64,000 nt of DNA, from the IMG/VR virus record IMGVR_UViG_3300032038_000021, positions 32,001 to 96,000 of that record. One strand, written 5' to 3'. Both the position numbers and the translations under genes were made by a program. Source of the stretch: a virus. Its lineage: Duplodnaviria; Caudoviricetes. The notes below the pieces were generated by a model. That model did not search any database, had not been told where the DNA came from, and saw only the letters and a list, made by a program, of their open reading frames with translations. Each line of letters starts with the position of its first letter. Positions within the stretch are counted from its first letter, which is position 1. This document shows, piece by piece, positions 16,084 through 36,035 of the stretch.

Positions 16084-17781
16084 TTATTTGGTTTCATAAT
16101 AGCTCTCAAGGCTATTCTTGATCACGTTTCCTTCCGAGTCGAAGTTAAACTTTCTAACCTCAACTGAGAAGTATTCTGGCTTCACGTTGATTATCGTCGA
16201 TACGATGTTTATAAATAACTCTTTATAATCTGCAATAGATTTACATACAATAGCAGCAGAAGTCTTCCTTGCAGGGTTATGAGCATTCTCGTTACAAACG
16301 ATAATATACAGGCAGTTAGTGCTCTGCTCTATATCTTTCATTGTACTGCATTTATATCTATAGATATAATCACCAAACGTTCTATATATTGCAGACACTC
16401 CCACACCCACTTCTCTATAAGTAGGATATTTATTGACACTATAGGGCTGCACATTATATTTTCTAGTATCATTATTATAGTGCAAGCAACAAAGATTCAC
16501 TTTAAGTTCCTCACAGGCTTTAATAAACGATACAAGAGGGCTCTGAAGACCCGTACAATAAAGATTAACTGATTTGTTTGCTCTACCTTCAGAATCGAAC
16601 CTCAGATATTTCTTGAGGAAATCCTTACATATCTGAAGCTGCTTATCATAATCAAACATAGTCTCTTTGTCGAGACCATCTTCAAATACTCCTTTAACAG
16701 CAGGAGTAGAATGTCTTCCATCTACTAATACACATTCAAACACCGGAGATGCAGAAGTAATTCTGTTAATATTCTTATTATGCAGAATACTCCGCGTATA
16801 CATACCAGGTATACCAGGTTTTATATATGACTCTTCGATGATTTCAGTTTTAGCTTTCTCAACAATGGTATCAACAACAGGTTCTTCTGTTGTAACTTCT
16901 ACTGTATTTACTGTAGGTGCCGGTATTTCTTTTTCCGGCTCACGAATAGGGTCCTGAACCTTTTCTTCTACAGCAACAACTTCTTCTTTCTTTACAGCTG
17001 TTGTGCTGCTTTTATTATTAGAGGAAGCTTTATTTTTATTATTCTGTAGCTTGAGCCTCCTTGCCTTAGTTTTCTTTTTCACTTCCTCATCCTCCTCGTT
17101 CGGCCTGTTAATATCATTCTTCTTTTTCACGTTACTTACTGTATTCTGACTCACATTGGCAAGTTCAGCAATCTCGTACTGTGTTAATGATGTGGTTTTA
17201 AGATCGTTGATAATCCGATCAACAATCTCCTTCGGTATCTTATTTGAAGGAGAATAGCAGGCGTAGAAATTATGATCCATCTTTACATTTGTATATTCCT
17301 TCATATAAGAAATAAGCGACACTATAGATACAAAATATTTTTCTGCAAGTTTACTCAATTCAAATCTGGTAATATATCTAGTACCGTCAATTTCAGCAGT
17401 AGCAGCCTTCTCAATCTTATCCGCTATAAACAGCTTCTCGTCATCGGTGAAACGCTTCTTCTTATCCTGATCTTCTTTGGTACGAGTCCAGACAAATTTT
17501 GGTTCTACGTCGTTGTTTTTTACAACAGAATGAGGTTCTTCTTTTATTATCATATATTCATTTCCCATTGAATTTGCAGTTTCCACCGGCTGCTGTGTTT
17601 TGATAGAATTCTTCAACGCAATAATCCTACCTTTGTTTCTTTTGCTTATGGTTAATACCTGGGATATATCCACCCCATATTTCTTCGCCATATTTTTTAA
17701 CGAAGATAAACTGTTGTTATCAGACTCTGCGAGTGCCGATATGATACAATCTTGCAAACTCTTTGTCATTTCCTTGTACAT
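16084..17781 (-). CDS. Large hypothetical protein with an HTH-like segment
   Basis: 565 aa; TQYEIAELANVSQNTVSNVKK helix-turn-helix pattern; early-promoter-like motif upstream. Confidence 0.6.
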   Translation of the reverse strand: MYKEMTKSLQDCIISALAESDNNSLSSLKNMAKKYGVDISQVLTISKRNKGRIIALKNSIKTQQPVETANSMGNEYMIIKEEPHSVVKNNDVEPKFVWTRTKEDQDKKKRFTDDEKLFIADKIEKAATAEIDGTRYITRFELSKLAEKYFVSIVSLISYMKEYTNVKMDHNFYACYSPSNKIPKEIVDRIINDLKTTSLTQYEIAELANVSQNTVSNVKKKNDINRPNEEDEEVKKKTKARRLKLQNNKNKASSNNKSSTTAVKKEEVVAVEEKVQDPIREPEKEIPAPTVNTVEVTTEEPVVDTIVEKAKTEIIEESYIKPGIPGMYTRSILHNKNINRITSASPVFECVLVDGRHSTPAVKGVFEDGLDKETMFDYDKQLQICKDFLKKYLRFDSEGRANKSVNLYCTGLQSPLVSFIKACEELKVNLCCLHYNNDTRKYNVQPYSVNKYPTYREVGVGVSAIYRTFGDYIYRYKCSTMKDIEQSTNCLYIIVCNENAHNPARKTSAAIVCKSIADYKELFINIVSTIINVKPEYFSVEVRKFNFDSEGNVIKNSLESYYETK

Positions 17782-18016: not shown

Positions 18017-18332
18017 TTATCTTCCATATACGATAACACGAAGTAGTGTATTTCCACTTTCCATATAATACCTTACAAGCGAATTATTAAAAAATATATA
18101 TAGAACCGCAATAATTGTACTGGTGTCATCTATTACACCTAAATAACATGGTTTACCAATTATATATCTGCTAGTATATATAATTCCTCCACCAAATGGT
18201 TGACCGCTATTATCTCTACCATACAAAACCATAATATCTGATATATTGTCAGGAATAGTAACATCAACAGGTGTTCGAGAACTTGTAGTATTATCGTTAA
18301 TAACGATAAATTGTTTGTTTATTTTTTCATCA
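18017..18332 (-). CDS. Silent tip cassette 25
   Basis: DEKINKQFIVINDNTTSSRTPVDVTIP... in frame with track ORF 18017-18232. Confidence 0.7.
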
Positions 18333-18371
18333 TCTTCTAAATTTATATTATAAATAAGTTTTAGTTGTTAA

Positions 18372-18660
18372 TTATTGAAGAATTTTCCACGAATCCCATG
18401 TTTGAGGATTTCCAACTCTTCGCCTGAACCCTTGTGAATTTCCACCTATAATTAATTGTATTCTGAAAGTATCGAATTGTATAAGTACTCCGTACCATGG
18501 AGAAAATTTAGATGGAAAACTTGTATGAACAAATTCTGTGCTAGATCCTATAGCATAATAACCAACACCTATATCTGTATTATCTATATTACCGGAAAAA
18601 TAACCTCTATTTCTTAACGGATAGCTTGACAATTTACAATAATTATTATTCAAATCATCA
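18372..18660 (-). CDS. Silent tip cassette 24 (pyocin-knob-like)
   Basis: DDLNNNYCKL...GYYAIG...GVLIQF...WDSWKILQ*. Confidence 0.75.
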
Positions 18661-18678
18661 ATCGGTTGTAAAATTATA

Positions 18679-18964
18679 TTATGTTTTAGCAAGTACGTAC
18701 CAACTAGTAAAACTATTATTAAGTCTATATCTAAGCACAGTTTGATTAGTATATATTTGTATTTGTATTCCATAGTCTAATGTTCTACGATATGATATGA
18801 TAAAATGAATATTACCTTTTAAATGAGCATCAGTTTCATATTGACCGTGACTAAAGGAAATTGATCCAGTAGGTTGATTATTAAATAGATCGGCGCATGA
18901 ATATGATTCATTTAATAATATAGGTGAAAATGTACATTTACTACGAAACTGTGTAGCTTCATCA
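18679..18964 (-). CDS. Silent tip cassette 23 (no start codon; absent from ORF track)
   Basis: DEATQFRSKCTFSPILL...DYGIQIQIYTNQTVLRYRLNNSFTSWYVLAKT*. Confidence 0.75.
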
Positions 18965-18976
18965 ATCGATTAAAAA

Positions 18977-19277
18977 TTATAATTCTTTTACAGGCTGCCA
19001 AGTGCCACTAATTTTTGTTTGATAAAGTAATTTACTAGTATTATATCCAAAAACTAAACCAGCAGCATAATCACTAGTTGCAAATTTTTGCACTATACAA
19101 GTAAAATTTCCATATACAAATATTATACCTATATGTATTTTATTATCGTTATCTATACTATCTATAGCTGTAGATATAACATCTTTGATTTGATTAGTAT
19201 TTTTATAACTTAAATAAAACGAATTACCAATATAACTAGTTATTTTATTTAATTTCTCAATAGGACCATTTTCATCA
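18977..19277 (-). CDS. Silent tip cassette 22 (paralog of cassette 5; absent from ORF track)
   Basis: DENGPIEKLNKITSYIGNSF...DYAAGLVFGY...SGTWQPVKEL*. Confidence 0.8.
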
Positions 19278-19433
19278 AAACAATCGGCTCTAGGGTTAAT
19301 TCCCTAGAGCCGTTAAAATTGCTAAAAATAATCATATATTATATTTTAAATAAATAATAGGAAACTGGATTAAATTATAGAAAGGTGGTGATTATATAAG
19401 GATAAAAGAAATAGGAAATAGACAAGGAGGTGA

Positions 19434-19607
19434 ATGAGATTGATTTATCTTAATAAAGATCAAATAGATCAAGTTGTCCAGATTGCAAAGTCGATACGAC
19501 CTGATCTATTTCCTGATGGCAACCATATCATTGGGAGATCTTATAAAGATTTATTTGAAGTTTCTAATCTTTACAGAACTATCTGTAAAGATTTAGGATA
19601 CAGATAA
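19434..19607 (+). CDS. Small protein (57 aa) flanked by a 17-bp inverted repeat
   Basis: AAGGAGG RBS; MRLIYLNKDQIDQVVQIAKSIRPDLFPDGNHIIGRSYKDLFEVSNLYRTICKDLGYR*. Confidence 0.7.
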   Translation: MRLIYLNKDQIDQVVQIAKSIRPDLFPDGNHIIGRSYKDLFEVSNLYRTICKDLGYR

Positions 19608-19778
19608 TAAATCACAAAAACCCGTAGTAACAATCCAATCTTTTATCCTAATCTATTTCCTATTATTTATTTGTAAAAAGAAAAGTAAATATTAAATATT
19701 TACTTTTCTTTTTTATCTGTATAATAATTTATAATTACCTCTTTATATTTTATAGTTTTCTGATGCTTAGAATCTTAA

Positions 19779-20139
19779 TCATATTGATGCTGATATTGAT
19801 TGTATTGTATTTGGTACTTGCCCATATATAATACCTAACCAATGTGTATATTGAATGTTTGCTGTGATCTTTATAGTTTTATTTGTAATTGTAGCTGTAG
19901 GGGTGGGTGGATTGTTACCACTATCACCACCACCAATAAATATAATAGTCGGATTATTAGATCCAGAAAAGAAACATAAATACATATTAGCATTTAATAC
20001 TAATAATATTCCACCATAACAAGCATTAAAATCCCCTACAGTAATATTTACATATTTTTTATTTATATATGAAAATATTATAGATTTTCAGAAAAAAGTA
20101 GTATATGATAATTGATTTTTAATCTGTGTATTTTCATCA
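19779..20139 (-). pseudogene. Tip cassette 21 with one in-frame TGA
   Basis: DENTQIKNQLSYTTFF*KSIIFSY...NANMYLCFFSG... continues in frame into track ORF 19779-19985; stop at 20088-20090. Confidence 0.65.
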
Positions 20140-20190
20140 TAAGTCAGTGAAATATAAGTAGATTTGGTAACTCACTGTATATAAGGAGTC

Positions 20191-20650
20191 TTAGAAGCTA
20201 ATTTTAGCGAGTGGAACCACACCACGACTGAGATCCGTCTTGATGTTGTACAAGATATCCCCACTCTCAAGGACAACATATGCGTTAGAATCGTTATATT
20301 TAGTGCTTGTCCAATATGGAAATCCATTATTTCGCACATATTTATTTATCATATTGGCTTCACTTTGAGTTGGGATTTTACAATTCTCTACCCTAATATC
20401 ACTAGATTTAAGATATAAGACTACTGTCCAAGAACAGTTACAAGCATCAGACCAATTTAAACTATCCTCATTAAGTCCTTTATAATTATATTGTGTATCA
20501 TATTTTCTACTTCCAATTGTAAAGTCAGTTCCCAAAAACCATGCAGCGGATCCGGATCTATAAGCACAAATAAATTGCATAGATCCTTTTTGATTTCCAT
20601 TATATGAACCTCTTACAAATGTACCTACTTTTATATTATTCAAATCATCA
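20191..20650 (-). CDS. Silent tip cassette 20 (C-type-lectin/DGR-target-like C-terminus)
   Basis: DDLNNIKVGTF...IPTQSEA...YWTSTKYNDSNAYVVLESG...GVVPLAKISF*. Confidence 0.75.
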
Positions 20651-20727
20651 AAAAGTTGTACTTACACCTATATTTCGTATTTGAGTAGCTTCTCATAAAC
20701 TATATTGGAGTTTAATAATATAAAACT

Positions 20728-31523: not shown

Positions 31524-31996
31524 TTATTAAAGGTATTATAGATGAAGATTTTGTAAACTATAAGAAGTGTAGTACTACTATTATGATGCCTAATTGTTCT
31601 TTTAAGTGTGAAAAAGAATGTGGTAAATTGGTATGTCAGAATTCTAAGTTAGCAAAGTCTTCTAATATAGATATTTCTAATGATAGATTAATAAATAGAT
31701 ATAAGAATAATATTTATAGTGATAGTATAGTATTTCAAGGATTAGAACCTTTTGATAGTTGGGAAGATTTAATCTTATTAATTTCCGATTTTAGAAAAGC
31801 TGGTATAGAAGATGATATAGTAATCTATACTGGTTATAAAGAAGATGAGATAGAAGATAAAGTAGAACTGTTAAAAGTGTTTAATAATATTATAATTAAA
31901 TACGGTAGATATATTCCTGATAGTGAGAAAGTATATGACGAATTATTAGGAGTAGAATTAGCCAGTAAGAATCAATATGCTAAGAGAATAAGTTAA
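31520..31996 (+). CDS. nrdG: Anaerobic RNR activating enzyme (radical SAM)
   Basis: CSFKCEKECGKLVCQN cysteine cluster, GLEP, IYTGY, GRY, SKNQ; overlaps the nrdD stop. Confidence 0.9.
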   Translation: MIIKGIIDEDFVNYKKCSTTIMMPNCSFKCEKECGKLVCQNSKLAKSSNIDISNDRLINRYKNNIYSDSIVFQGLEPFDSWEDLILLISDFRKAGIEDDIVIYTGYKEDEIEDKVELLKVFNNIIIKYGRYIPDSEKVYDELLGVELASKNQYAKRIS

Positions 31997-32003
31997 AATA
32001 ATA

Positions 32004-32038
32004 TCCCCGTAGGAGTAAATTCCTACGGGGATATTTTT
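32004..32038. terminator. Bidirectional intrinsic terminator between nrdG and cassette 6
   Basis: ATCCCCGTAGGA-GTAAAT-TCCTACGGGGAT followed by a T run. Confidence 0.8.
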
Positions 32039-32041
32039 ATA

Positions 32042-32378
32042 TTATCTAAAAACATGACCTATAACTGCATAAGAATTGACACTTGATGTTGAACCACGGT
32101 ATCTTTTACAATAACATCTATAAGTACCACTATTTAAAATTCCTGTCACAGCTTCTATTGATAGAGTACTATTAGATTCACCATATAATTTGGATCTGAC
32201 ACTACCATCTAGATTGTCACAAATAGCTAATACTTCCGGACGACCCGAATTCCAATTAGTACTATATCGTATAAGTGCAACATTCGATAATTCAAATTCT
32301 ATTCCAATATATTCCATATTTTCACTTTGTGATATATATGTAGTAGTAGCCAAAGTTAAAAATATAATCCTATCATTA
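32042..32378 (-). CDS. Silent tip cassette 6 (variant core TAATGA)
   Basis: NDRIIFLTLATTTYISQ... in frame with track ORF 32042-32353; upstream flank aaccgat as in other cores. Confidence 0.7.
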
Positions 32379-32390
32379 ATCGGTTTAAAA

Positions 32391-32688
32391 TTATATTTCT
32401 CTTACAGCCTGCCAAGTGCCTGCAGCTTTTATTTGAAAAAGTATTTTATTATTACTATATCCAAAAACTAAACCAGAAGCATAATTACTATCTATAAATT
32501 TTTGTGCTAAACAAATATACCATCCAGATCTAAATATTTCACCTATATGTAATTTACCATCGTTATCTAAACTATCTATAACTGTAGGTATATGATCTTT
32601 AATTTGACCAGAGGTATAATTTAAAGAAAATGAATTACCAATATAATTAGTTATTTTATTTAATTTATTAATAGGACCATTTTCATCA
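32391..32688 (-). CDS. Silent tip cassette 5 (absent from ORF track)
   Basis: DENGPINKLNKITNYIGNSF...NYASGLVFGY...AGTWQAVREI*. Confidence 0.8.
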
Positions 32689-32714
32689 TGCTTGTTTGTA
32701 AATATAATTTTATA

Positions 32715-33087
32715 TTATAATCTTTTTAATGTAATTGTATATATGTAAGCATATACATTTATATTTGTACCAGAATTTTGAGATGCATAACATTCTATGA
32801 TTTCACCAACATCATAACGTTCTACTGTTATAAGTTGTTGATACATTACTTTTCCTTTTATTGAATTTATAATATTTGTTTGATCCCTTGCACCTCCTAC
32901 TGATCTTACAGCAATAAGTCTAGTTCCAGTATCATTCGCCGCCACCCAGTTTGCACCTCTTATTACTAAATATTGTGCATGTGTGTTCACCGTGACAGTT
33001 GCAACAAGTATTCTTGAATCATTTCCGGATATAGATGTTGCATTTGGAAGTGTACCATCAAAAGTTCCACGATATGAATTTTCATCA
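32715..33087 (-). CDS. Silent tip cassette 4 (possibly C1q/TNF-like beta-sandwich)
   Basis: DENSYRGTFDGTLPNATSISG... in frame with 32715-32990; contains GTRLI and ECYASQNSG. Confidence 0.75.
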
Positions 33088-33089
33088 TA

Positions 33090-33381
33090 TCAAACAGTTA
33101 TAAAAGCTATTTTATACCATGTATTCCAAGTTTTATTACTATCATCTCCGTCGCGTTTATATAAATTAGAACTTATCATTGTGATAATCATCTGTACAAT
33201 TTGGTTTGAAAGATATGATCTTAATATTAATAAAAAACAATAAGTACAATCTGTAGGTGTGTTTTGTATATGATCACAGATATAATAAATACCTGTAGAT
33301 ATATAATTGTTAGCATTTTCACTAGCTACAGGTATTCTATTGATAAGACCAGGTGTATTTTTCAATTGTGCAGCTTCATCA
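33090..33381 (-). CDS. Silent tip cassette 3 (pyocin-knob-like)
   Basis: DEAAQLKNTPG...NANNYISTGIY...IVQMI...WNTWYKI. Confidence 0.8.
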
Positions 33382-33427
33382 TAAAATATTATAGTAATTA
33401 TATTAAATTGATTTATAATTAGGTATA

Positions 33428-33716
33428 TTACAGTATATGAGCAGTAAATGTTCCAGTTTGTTCATATGCGTACGAACTATTTAACTTTAGTATATCACCT
33501 TTTCGTAATCCCACTATGTCATTTATCGTAGAATCTGCATTCGAAGTATATCCAGTACAGTTAAAATCTTTTCCATTGATTAAGTAATTTATATAAGGCC
33601 TGACCCCATTTGTAGTACGATTTGACATCCTTACAAAACAATCATATGGTGCTGTATAAGGCGAAGTTTTTAACTGTGTTGAAATATCTATATAACCATG
33701 CAATATATCTTCATCG
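33428..33716 (-). CDS. Silent tip cassette 2 (variant core CGATGA)
   Basis: DEDILHGYIDISTQLKTSPYTAPYD...LRKGDIL; in frame with 33428-33703. Confidence 0.75.
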
Positions 33717-33724
33717 ATCGGTTA

Positions 33725-33965
33725 TTATTTATAATAGATAAACGTATAATTATGGCTAGTCGTTATAGGATATAAAACATATATGGATATAATAGATTGC
33801 TGCACACTCCATATACAACAATCTCGATGTTCAGTTACGTAAAATAAATTAAATAAAGAACCTACAATATTCTCATCTCTTATTTGGTATTTATCACCAA
33901 CATTTAATGCTTTATCAAATGTACCATATTTATAATATGCTGTTACTTTATTAAACTTTTCATCA
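33725..33965 (-). CDS. Silent tip cassette 1 (no Met; absent from ORF track)
   Basis: DEKFNKVTAYYKYGTFDKALNVGDKY...YVLYPITTSHNYTFIYYK*. Confidence 0.75.
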
Positions 33966-33984
33966 AAACACTTTTATCAATATA

Positions 33985-34626
33985 TCAATTACTCCGCCTA
34001 TGTAAAACAGTAACTCTAACAATATTATTTGTAATTTTAGTACCATTACTAGTTTTCCATCCAAGATCAATAAAATAAGAATTACTACTATCAATGCTTA
34101 TAAATAAATTAAATAAAAATATTTTACTATCTGTTTTTGCGTGCCATCCTGCAATGGCAATAGGTTTATAACCACTAATCAAATCCATAGTTACAATCTC
34201 TTCATGTTCTATAAAAGTACCTACAGATTTAATATCTATGGTATTATAAATTAAATAGTTGGATTTCAAATCATCATTTAGTGTAGCAATTGCCTCAGCG
34301 TTCAGAGAGCAAGCACGACGAAGAGATCCGATAATAGATCCGAGCGTCTTACCGGTCGTAACGTTAGCAAGAGCTGCAGTAGCCGTACTAGAAGTATCAT
34401 CGTTAATACCACCGGTGATCTCAGTAGTAGCAATATCTCCGCCCATTGCATAAGGAAGAGAACCATAAGCAGTAACACCATCGCCCATCTTCATCTTACA
34501 AGTACCGGTTCCAACACCAGTATCGGGCAATTCTATAAACATTTCGCCTGCTGCAAGCACTGTAGAGGACTTAGTTCCGTTCATTGTAGAAGCTTTACCA
34601 CGTCTGGGCTTAAAAATCTTAGACAT
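33985..34626 (-). CDS. Receptor-binding/tail-fibre protein: constant Mtd-N-like N-terminus plus exchangeable tip (putative expression locus)
   Basis: KPRRG...VLAAGEMFIELPDTG...KMGDGVTAYGSLPY domain; junction AIATLN|DD at 34271-34276; composition drops sharply to AT-rich after the junction; AAGGAGG RBS and late-promoter motif at 34752-34763. Confidence 0.8.
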   Translation of the reverse strand: MSKIFKPRRGKASTMNGTKSSTVLAAGEMFIELPDTGVGTGTCKMKMGDGVTAYGSLPYAMGGDIATTEITGGINDDTSSTATAALANVTTGKTLGSIIGSLRRACSLNAEAIATLNDDLKSNYLIYNTIDIKSVGTFIEHEEIVTMDLISGYKPIAIAGWHAKTDSKIFLFNLFISIDSSNSYFIDLGWKTSNGTKITNNIVRVTVLHRRSN

Positions 34627-34943
34627 ATTTAAATTCCTCCTTTTAGGAAAATTAAACTCCTCATCTCATACTTATTAGTAGCTCTCTGGATAGTATTATA
34701 GTAATCATAAAGATAAGGAGCGATACTAAGGTATCACTACTAATAAGCAATTATGTAAATGTTCCTCCGGTAAATAGCGAAAAACCCATCATTTGAAACT
34801 ATAGTAACTACTTTTGGCAGTTACTGAGCGTTTTCATATATTAAAAAATATATCATATTTAAATGATGGGTTTTTATAAATTTTTAATAATATACTATAA
34901 AAGTGTAAATGTGGTTACTAAACAAAATAAAGGAGTGAATATT

Positions 34944-35123
34944 ATGAAACTTGAAGACATCATAAGAACCTATGGAAAAAGTACCGATTATTATGATATG
35001 TATACTGGATATACATATCACTTGCCTCAGATGGGAGAACCGGATGAGGAAGGTAATCAGAAAGTTCCGGTGTCAGAAGATGGAACCATTATCGGAACTG
35101 TCACTGTGAATATGACAACCTAA
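34944..35123 (+). CDS. Small hypothetical protein
   Basis: AAAGGAG RBS before ATG 34944; hairpin terminator at about 35131-35157. Confidence 0.65.
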   Translation: MKLEDIIRTYGKSTDYYDMYTGYTYHLPQMGEPDEEGNQKVPVSEDGTIIGTVTVNMTT

Positions 35124-35165: not shown

Positions 35166-36035
35166 TTATTTTTTATTCTTATTATCAGTAGATTCTTCTA
35201 CAACTTCTTCATCTTCAGATCCAAATTCGCCATCGTCTTCTGGATCTTCTTCCTCTGCTTCTTCTACAGTATCATCTTCAGTAATTTCTTCAACAGGTTC
35301 TATCTTAACCTCTTTTTCTACATTTTCTTTTTTATCAAGAGAAGATATCGGTTTAAGAATATCTTGTAATCCTGCTGTAGATACTACAGTCTCAGCATCA
35401 CCACTATCTATTTCGGTATTATTATCATCGTCCTCTGTAGTAGGTTCTGTTGGTTCTGTGCTTGGTTCAACAGGTTCTACCGGTTCAGCAGTATCATCGT
35501 CTGTGGAGGGAGTAGTATCACCATATTGATCGAACGGGTCTGTTTCATAATTAGTATTATCAATTACATAATCTTCCATATTTGATAATGACATTGGAAC
35601 ATCGCCATCTTCTGTACCAAAATCGTAAGTAGTATCATCTTCCATAATAGTACCGGCAGTTATATAAGGGAGACTATTCCATCTACTACTACCATTTCCA
35701 ATCTTAATAGCATTCTTTGTAATATCGTAAGCTATTTCTCTTTCTGCAAGTATAGGATTAGTGTTAGCCCAAGCACTAGCGGTAGCAGATCTAACCTGAA
35801 TAAGAGCAGTAGCGTTTATACCACCACCATCTATAGCAGATGCTGCAGTTCCGTCGAATGCATATACTAAATTATTCCAAGGGCTTACTCCATCTCCAAC
35901 CTTAAACTTACATAATCCTGTTCCTATTCCACTATCAGGAAATTGTATTGCTAGTTCTCCCTCTGCAAGGACTGGGTTATATGAAGCCCATTCGTATTCA
36001 GTTCCCCGTCTAGGTCTTATTTTAGCATAAGCCAT
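35166..36035 (-). CDS. Tail-associated protein with two Mtd-N-like domains and an acidic tail
   Basis: RPRRG..W...NPVLAEGE...KVGDG..W..L.Y and NPILAERE...KIGNG..W.SLPY. Confidence 0.75.
   Translation of the reverse strand: MAYAKIRPRRGTEYEWASYNPVLAEGELAIQFPDSGIGTGLCKFKVGDGVSPWNNLVYAFDGTAASAIDGGGINATALIQVRSATASAWANTNPILAEREIAYDITKNAIKIGNGSSRWNSLPYITAGTIMEDDTTYDFGTEDGDVPMSLSNMEDYVIDNTNYETDPFDQYGDTTPSTDDDTAEPVEPVEPSTEPTEPTTEDDDNNTEIDSGDAETVVSTAGLQDILKPISSLDKKENVEKEVKIEPVEEITEDDTVEEAEEEDPEDDGEFGSEDEEVVEESTDNKNKK

Follow-up and report, generated by a model that had tools for sequence, protein, structure and literature searches.

Start-less receptor-binding tips stored behind a six-base core in a jumbo phage: evidence for a cassette-exchange system acting at the DNA level

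We analysed a 64,000-nucleotide (nt) stretch of viral DNA, hereafter the window, which corresponds to bases 32001-96000 of the 118.9-kb IMG/VR virus record IMGVR_UViG_3300032038_000021 (G000), and in which a short tail fibre gene is followed on the same strand by a long series of open segments that begin at the hexamer TGATGA. Our results indicate that the fibre gene and these segments very probably constitute a DNA-level cassette-exchange system for the receptor-binding tip of this single short tail fibre. A previous description made from the letters of this DNA, referred to here as the sequence-only reading, had proposed an integron-like library of silent tips; its observation was confirmed and its interpretation was largely supported by the present analysis. 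Throughout the text, L designates relative or metagenome contigs, P homologous proteins and G genomes, and each cassette is named by the position of its core (e.g., c33087).

According to the mechanism that we propose, the expressed gene would provide the promoter, the ribosome-binding site, an Mtd_N-like virion anchor and a helical stalk ending in AAT GAT GA(T/A), and the genome would store dozens of alternative heads of about 100 amino acids (aa), all start-less, located on one strand and opening with one shared hexamer in a common frame. Cutting the DNA within TGATGA and joining the core of the expression site to that of a cassette would generate an in-frame anchor-tip fusion, and recombination between cores would also move, delete or duplicate whole core-to-core units, intramolecular events deleting the interval and intermolecular or circle-mediated events inserting or duplicating it. 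Since the cores are asymmetric and all of them direct repeats, the expected products would be deletions, insertions and unequal exchanges, not inversions, and since the core has the same frame in all cassettes, every product would keep the reading phase. Residue 119 (D or E) is contributed by the cassette side, which fits a crossover within or before base 6. A 6-bp site of this kind would be dangerous elsewhere in the genome, so that its purge from both strands would be expected.

The fibre gene (33985-34626, minus strand) encodes 213 aa from an ATG with the strong ribosome-binding site AAAGGAGG eight bases upstream of it, and residues 5-75 of its product are 45% identical to the Mtd_N-bearing protein encoded next to it; both the ribosome-binding site and an Mtd-N-like constant region had been recognized in the sequence-only reading. 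An AlphaFold2 (AF2) model of the whole expressed protein was confident for residues 1-121, with a long helix spanning residues 95-121 that includes L116-N117-D118-D119 (codons CTA AAT GAT GAT) at its end; past residue 121 the predicted local distance difference test score (pLDDT) fell below 50 and the tip was unusable. A PDB fold search with this whole-protein model yielded weak matches only, to phage hyaluronidase fibres and Mtd.

Exchange at the core was observed in DNA. A search with fibre residues 1-120 retrieved 96 proteins, nine of which share an anchor 96-99% identical to that of the fibre and are wholly different in sequence past LND(D/E), in agreement with the expectation that relatives would carry other tips at the expression locus. 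Across the fibre family, down to about 50% identity, L116, N117 and D118 are near invariant and nothing beyond them aligns. In the protein P0003, whose anchor is 99% identical, the tip is 96.5% identical to the silent cassette c26879. At the nucleotide level, four contigs (L009, L101, L102 and L103) with 90-94% identity upstream lose similarity at window position 34271, the last base of the core, and two near-identical contigs were recovered by an exact-pattern scan of Joint Genome Institute (JGI) metagenomes. In the first of these, L107, identity is 99.9% across the 1830 bp that end at 34271, past which comes a tip not present in this record. The second, L108, is 100% identical to window positions 34381-34271 and, from the core onward, 99.2% identical to positions 33088-28976; its anchor is thereby joined in frame to the silent cassette c33087, with tip0 (the tip expressed in our record), c33965, the CGATGA cassette (core at 33716) and c33381 precisely missing. 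A second exact core-to-core difference in L108 is the loss of the c28981 unit. Recombinant joints located exactly at cores are therefore present in near-identical genomes, and the anchor-c33087 joint bears out in DNA the proposal that recombination at the core connects a stored tip to the constant N-terminus. Furthermore, two pairs of cassettes within the record (c26879/c28981 and c19277/c32688) are similar from one core to the end of the next, tip, stop and trailer included, with unrelated flanks.

Contigs combining near-identical anchors with other tips were mostly 0.9-3.7 kb long, and several end 100-250 bp from the tip, which fits an assembly breaking at a heterogeneous locus. Two further hits, L109 from a viral-contig scan with a 20-mer of the junction and L106 from the metagenome scan, were discarded as chance matches.

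The distribution of the hexamer was equally distinctive. Exact copies of TGATGA number 24 in the window and are confined to the minus strand, where they fall between 18327 and 34276, the plus strand having none; from dinucleotide shuffles of the window, 48 ± 7 would be expected for both strands together. Over the 118.9-kb record there are 0 forward and 29 reverse copies (28 sites, two copies overlapping), each of them the fibre junction or a cassette start, with zero elsewhere on either strand; the counts of GATGA with A, C or G in front are 168, 88 and 53, respectively, from which about 115 copies of TGATGA would be expected by base composition (range about 75-115). The hexamer has been removed through synonymous codon choice: in long open reading frames (ORFs), Asp preceding D/E is encoded after a T-ending codon by GAC 39 times and by GAT once, the single GAT being the fibre junction, whereas after codons ending in A, C or G the proportion is 232 GAT to 66 GAC, and codons ending in TG before ATG-Axx are absent. 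The complement of TGATGA is equally missing from sense strands, which points to selection on duplex DNA and not on one mRNA orientation.

This purge was detected in at least three diverged lineages. In L010, a 296-kb contig with an anchor 83% identical, the expression-site core and 13 cassettes lie within 10 kb, and no other TGATGA is found in 20.6 kb. The complete 249.6-kb IMG/VR genome G001 (anchor 60% identical) harbors several depots with about 20 cassettes in all, a single cassette being on the reverse strand, and contains 28 copies of TGATGA (26 forward, 2 reverse) versus 453 of AGATGA (276 forward, 177 reverse). On the 23-kb scaffold_3451 (anchor 86% identical) only the expression-site core is present. 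Three genomes with distant Mtd_N fibres, included as negative controls (G002, G003 and G004), showed neither an LNDD junction nor a purge of TGATGA.

The silent cassettes (Table 1) agree in number and kind with the 25 segments counted in the sequence-only reading, namely 23 with exact cores plus one each with CGATGA and TAATGA. Each of the 23 exact silent cores opens 66-152 codons in the GAT frame (xxT GAT GAx), close to the 65-150 reported before, with the exception already recognized of c20139, which is interrupted by one in-frame TGA after 16 codons; the decayed cores, CGATGA at 33716 and TAATGA at 32378, are followed by 95 and 111 codons. A second depot, located at G000:C1:4974-7671, about 24-27 kb before the start of the window and 42 kb from the array, adds four cassettes with identical core, strand and frame, and five copies of TGATGA, as one cassette has an overlapping double core (TGATGATGA). 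Altogether, at least 29 silent cassettes are stored. An in-frame stop usually lies a few codons upstream of the core. The spacing of 2-80 bp from each stop to the next core given in the sequence-only reading holds for most cassettes (often 2-27 bp), and not for two gaps of about 165 bp nor for the kilobases that surround plus-strand genes. The lack of evident ribosome-binding sites was corroborated, as a Shine-Dalgarno motif was found just upstream of 0 of 28 silent core positions versus 41 of 56 long ORFs, and at an internal start in 1 of 28 cassettes; moreover, four cassettes contain no ATG, GTG or TTG whatsoever. Beyond the hexamer, almost nothing in the way of conserved arms or dyad symmetry was found around the cores.

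Table 1. Positions of the expressed fibre gene parts and of the silent cassettes in the window.
Feature	Coordinates	Strand	Basis or comparison
Constant part, aa 1-117; Mtd_N-like anchor and long helix ending ...AIATLN	34277..34626	-	Ribosome-binding site, ATG, identity to Mtd_N neighbour, AF2 model, conservation
Expression-site core TGATGA, read xxT GAT GAx (N-D-D/E)	34271..34276	-	Relatives lose similarity at 34271
tip0, tip currently expressed, 96 codons including two core codons	33985..34270	-	Missing from L108
c33965, 79 codons	33725..33965	-	Core and open GAT frame; missing from L108
Cassette with CGATGA, 95 codons	33428..33716	-	Degenerate core; missing from L108
c33381, 96 codons	33090..33381	-	Core and open GAT frame; missing from L108
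c33087, 123 codons; tip joined to anchor in L108	32715..33087	-	Core and contig alignment
c32688, 98 codons, no ATG/GTG/TTG; c19277 paralogue	32391..32688	-	Core and comparison
Cassette with TAATGA, 111 codons	32042..32378	-	Degenerate core
c28981, 116 codons; core-to-core duplicate of c26879; missing core-to-core from L108	28630..28981	-	
c28461, 83 codons	28209..28461	-	Core and open frame
c28196, 96 codons, no ATG/GTG/TTG	27905..28196	-	Core and open frame
c26879, 115 codons; 96.5% identical to P0003 expressed tip; receptor-binding-head model	26531..26879	-	
c26370, 66 codons	26169..26370	-	Core and open frame
c26157, 94 codons	25872..26157	-	Core and open frame
c25234, 98 codons	24937..25234	-	Core and open frame
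c24917, 101 codons	24611..24917	-	Core and open frame
c24585, 106 codons, no ATG/GTG/TTG	24264..24585	-	Core and open frame
c24237, 90 codons	23964..24237	-	Core and open frame
c23949, 121 codons	23583..23949	-	Core and open frame
c22055, 86 codons	21794..22055	-	Core and open frame
c21049, 106 codons	20728..21049	-	Core and open frame
c20650, 152 codons; distant likeness to P0021 and P0023 expressed tips	20191..20650	-	Core and tip comparison
c20139, broken by one in-frame TGA after 16 codons	19767..20139	-	Core and frame
c19277, 99 codons; core-to-core paralogue of c32688	18977..19277	-	Core and comparison
c18964, 94 codons	18679..18964	-	Core and open frame
c18660, 95 codons	18372..18660	-	Core and open frame
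c18332, 104 codons; last cassette of the array	18017..18332	-	Core and open frame

For one of the stored tips, that of c26879, a structure was modelled after alignment with the few homologues found among 1.8 billion representatives (pLDDT 88; predicted template modelling score, pTM, 0.81). The model matches the heads of the receptor-binding proteins of the lactococcal phages p2 and TP901-1 with template modelling (TM) scores of 0.63-0.68 and, more weakly, adenovirus fibre knobs; the pyocin-knob and lectin-like folds suggested in the sequence-only reading were not recovered for this tip. Two of its homologues are longer proteins that carry the domain at the C-terminus. Judging from this modelled tip, the stored tips are predicted to be receptor-binding heads, and their exchange would accordingly be expected to change host range, to the extent that the predicted fold reveals function. 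Sequence diversity among them is high, with similarity detectable in only eight pairs among 74 tips from five genomes. Between paralogues, the ratio of non-synonymous to synonymous substitution rates (dN/dS) was 1.0 for c26879/c28981 and 2.8 for c19277/c32688, with frames intact; the differences are mainly non-synonymous, cluster in patches and, as judged by eye only, are not confined to A positions. These ratios suggest diversifying use of, or selection on, binding loops rather than decay.

A candidate for the exchange enzyme was found in relatives. The search for a recombinase or a reverse transcriptase recommended in the sequence-only reading was negative for the 118.9-kb record, where the Phage_integrase and RVT_1 profiles gave no match; one sub-threshold resolvase match was rejected, as it has a stop inside. 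Conversely, G001 encodes one Xer-like tyrosine recombinase with Pfam Phage_integrase and SAM-like domains. This relative's enzyme scored 209 bits against a cut-off of 220 for NF040815 (XerA/integron integrase), 74 against 265 for TIGR02249, and 52 against 435 for NF011946. An orthologue lies on scaffold_3451, 11 kb from the fibre gene, and two contigs of 256,798 and 269,224 bp are among the recombinase matches and the fibre matches alike; in G002 (92% complete), the LNDD fibre, the purge and the Xer-like recombinase are all missing. The syntenic block that contains the Xer-like gene falls outside the 118.9-kb fragment. In the dif sites of Xer-type systems, a 6-bp central region is flanked by a pair of inverted arms, each about 11 bp long, and tyrosine-recombinase sites normally carry binding arms of 11-13 bp. 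In comparison, the sites described here have an invariant 6-bp centre, and no conserved or dyad-symmetric arms were detected around it, for which reason we regard the Xer-like recombinase as a candidate only, with the case for and against its being the exchange enzyme evenly balanced.

We infer that a phage enzyme catalyses the exchange, and that this occurs often enough for host-range bet-hedging. Several points weigh against this interpretation. Neither a recombinase of any known family nor a reverse transcriptase was found in the 118.9-kb record, and the candidate known from relatives is separated from the fibre gene by 11 to about 135 kb, in a conserved gene block, and may thus serve another purpose. 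The core flanks are nearly devoid of conserved information, which is unusual for tyrosine-recombinase sites. Every exchange joint comes from assembled contigs of different samples, and the difference directly visible is of the deletion (or block-insertion) type, single-cassette excision and re-integration being a supposition from old duplicates. Finally, frequent recombination between direct repeats should erode the arrays, so that some form of control must exist.

The failure to find an enzyme in this record and the origin of the joints in different samples are also what would be expected from passive mosaicism, that is, relic or imported cassettes exchanged rarely, on an evolutionary scale, between co-infecting relatives by no dedicated machinery, with LNDD as the edge of a conserved stalk; furthermore, modular exchange of receptor-binding tips is common among phages. 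Nevertheless, we consider this explanation improbable, since it leaves unexplained the synonymous removal of TGATGA from both strands in diverged lineages, and breakpoints fall on the same 6 bp in every comparison without homology on the cassette side. Moreover, 27 start-less open frames are kept in one phase, and two exact core-to-core differences separate genomes that are otherwise 99-100% identical.

AT-rich, -10-like boxes lie upstream of many cores, and the layout recalls the leader and body core sequences of nidoviruses, features which would suit a joining at the RNA level, through discontinuous transcription or trans-splicing at UGAUGA, with many tips made at once. This is highly improbable given that the fusions are present in DNA contigs and that genes of both orientations have been cleared of TGATGA and of its complement on their sense strands, as expected of a signal in duplex DNA; in addition, neither a splicing ribozyme nor anything akin to one was observed, and the flanks show no conservation.

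The -10-like boxes could also belong to independent small genes with unconventional initiation, in which TGATGA would have a regulatory or translational role, as in NTG-ATG tandem starts or the overlap of a stop with a start, and the base preceding the core is nearly always A or T, which creates ATG/TTG-ATG in another frame. However, of the other frames at the core one is a double stop and the NTG-ATG frame closes after 2-59 codons, mostly fewer than 20, the open frame being always that of GAT. The cassettes have no Shine-Dalgarno motif, unlike the real genes of this phage, the same domains are fused to anchors in relatives, and the search with the c26879 tip returned the domain as the C-terminal part of longer proteins; we thus give very little credence to this alternative. 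Lastly, avoidance of host restriction, for instance of a Type III system that tolerates one orientation, with a purge unrelated to the cassettes, would agree with the depletion of both orientations and the single direction of all survivors, and T7 has a comparable one-orientation bias at EcoP15I sites, but it is scarcely credible here because clearing one orientation would suffice against a Type III enzyme, the surviving strand is also cleared outside cassettes, the survivors share their codon phase at cassette starts, and the recombinant joints lie within the hexamer.

Returning to the cassette-exchange interpretation, we favor, with some reserve, the view that it represents an active, phage-encoded deletional and integrative system, by which a single population would continuously yield varied receptor specificities from a library of 30-50 tips, and that the need to keep the core unique has reshaped the codon usage of a 250-300-kb genome. 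An active system of this kind would account for the ability of uncultured jumbo phages to deal with host surfaces that are diverse or phase-variable, as well as for the breaking of assemblies at the fibre gene; it would also offer a natural, minimal plug-in junction (…LND|D/E) for the exchange of receptor-binding domains in laboratory phage work, and a clear example of codon usage shaped by a recombination site.

With regard to the genomic context, CheckV estimated the record to be 48% complete, and no DNA match for it was found in the phage record collection. Its relatives measure 250-296 kb, which indicates a jumbo phage with a genome of about 250-300 kb; the G+C content of the phage is about 31%. 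Translation table 11 suits the long genes of the window, and alternative codes (TGA=W, TAG=Q, TAA readthrough) were rejected, as they did not merge the fragments at 18-34 kb into long genes. The minus strand of the window at 36-64 kb is occupied by very large genes (716-2544 aa), a few of which match virion or fibritin-like families, in a block that terminates in the Mtd_N protein (35166-36035, minus strand) followed by the fibre gene. In this neighbouring protein, two Mtd_N-like repeats are followed by a tail of some 150 residues, extremely acidic and with an abundance of D, E, T and P. A small ORF (34863-35123, plus strand) separates the two fibre genes and keeps its position in all relatives examined (59-71 aa), the one in L010 being 64% identical. 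The single expression locus proposed in the sequence-only reading holds for the 118.9 kb available, to which our statement is restricted.

The cassette region is of mixed composition, with NrdD, NrdG, PhoH, a helix-turn-helix (HTH) protein and several genes of no known function on the plus strand between cassette groups. Embedded among the cassettes on the opposite strand (29493-31996 and 22810-23541, plus strand) are nrdD and nrdG, both anaerobic ribonucleotide reductase genes, and a phoH-like gene, so that a deletion between distant cores would remove them. A small-gene module is present in three copies (window 22260-22688; G000:C1:5645-6072; G000:C1:7690-8117), in each of which a hairpin and a strong ribosome-binding site accompany a 66-aa ORF (first residues MNLG) and a 3' tail, some 100 nt long, that is conserved; two of the tails stop about 16 nt short of a core, and the core of the third copy has decayed. 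This module may be cargo within cassette units, or an accessory or leader element. Directly after the last cassette lies a gene for a 565-aa protein (16084-17781, minus strand) with weak HTH-type matches, an acidic and lysine-rich linker and a C-terminal domain, which had no informative match in Pfam, PHROGs, the protein atlas or PDB sequences; a partial homologue adjoins a cassette depot in G001 (115.8-116.2 kb). Each depot also has one member of a pair of paralogous proteins (window 21132-21722, plus strand, 196 aa; G000:C1:6413-6988, plus strand, 191 aa) that are 52% identical and match no family; both display two internal repeats with a Q/S-x-V-x-G-x-N motif, which may be reminiscent of cystatins.

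Among known systems, the closest in function are the tail-fibre shufflons of phages, namely Rin of Bifidobacterium prophages and, described alongside it, Min of p15B, Gin of Mu and Cin of P1 (PMC6109161). Rin employs a tyrosine recombinase and an 11-bp crossover repeat, rix, located just upstream of each variable segment and rare elsewhere (PMC6109161). All four, like the present system, combine one constant N-terminal part with alternative C-terminal segments devoid of starts and with a crossover repeat that is short and asymmetric; the low sequence similarity among variable tips is shared with Rin. Nevertheless, these shufflons invert DNA between opposed sites, whereas here the cores are 0 forward and 29 reverse and L108 represents a deletion or an insertion, as anticipated in the sequence-only reading from the direct orientation of all cores. 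Furthermore, their 2-6 segments are grouped in a single compact locus next to the invertase gene, in contrast to at least 29 cassettes that extend over 16 kb among unrelated genes plus a second depot, with no serine or tyrosine recombinase found within 118.9 kb, and with a conserved site of 6 bp that is purged genome-wide.

The R64/IncI1 shufflon (Rci, PilV tips) and the vsa, vpma and vsp switches of Mycoplasma (Xer-like or HvsR) are inversion-based, bacterial and use sites of 19-34 bp; the likeness resides in silent adhesin genes lacking their 5' end, activated at a single expression site, in those cases by Xer-type tyrosine recombinases. Integrons carry whole-gene cassettes with their own start codons that are transcribed from Pc, and have the attC core GTTRRRY. 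As in integrons, promoterless core-to-core units in one orientation are lost, duplicated or reordered, with one expression site at the head of the array and a tyrosine recombinase as candidate enzyme. Conversely, the cassettes described here are gene fragments in a phage, expressed only as in-frame protein fusions. As for IntI, the record has no Phage_integrase match and the relative's enzyme is far below the integron-integrase cut-offs; as for attC, its hairpins are absent, trailers being as short as 2-20 bp, and the often 2-27 bp from a stop to the next core, the flanks with almost no shared information and a TGATGA core set these sites apart. The term integron-like is thus adequate as an analogy for the array and does not extend to IntI or attC.

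The diversity-generating retroelement (DGR) acting on Mtd in the Bordetella phage BPP-1 likewise varies the receptor-binding end of a fibre with an Mtd_N-type anchor; the distinction drawn in the sequence-only reading was upheld, since no reverse transcriptase (RVT_1) was found in the record and whole domains are exchanged, unlike the mutated residues of the DGR. The receptor-binding proteins of the lactococcal phages p2 and TP901-1 (PDB 2bsd, 2f0c) have the same head fold as the modelled tip and the same arrangement of anchor, helical neck and exchangeable head, and a chimeric receptor-binding protein from TP901-1 and p2 is the title of PDB 3d8m. Exchange of heads among those phages has occurred in the course of evolution or through laboratory work. 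Neither a stored head library nor a crossover core is known in lactococcal phages. Gene conversion of the pilE/pilS, vlsE and MAT type also differs, as the similarity between expression site and cassette is here the 6-bp core (12 bp in a few), and L108 is collinear with the array past the joint, which indicates a deletion of reciprocal type and not a copied patch.

The full-text literature searched describes inversion shufflons and DGRs, and no description of a direct-repeat tip library was found in it, consistent with the sequence-only reading, which had recognized no described system. As far as that literature goes, the layout reported here is an undescribed one for a viral host-range switch. 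The programmed host-range switches of phages that we know of alternate 2-6 tips by inversion or mutate one tip by a DGR. In comparison, this phage stores an order of magnitude more complete receptor-binding heads, in a different topology in which direct repeats lead to the gain, loss and fusion of cassettes, and around a 6-bp signal strong enough to force synonymous recoding throughout the genome.

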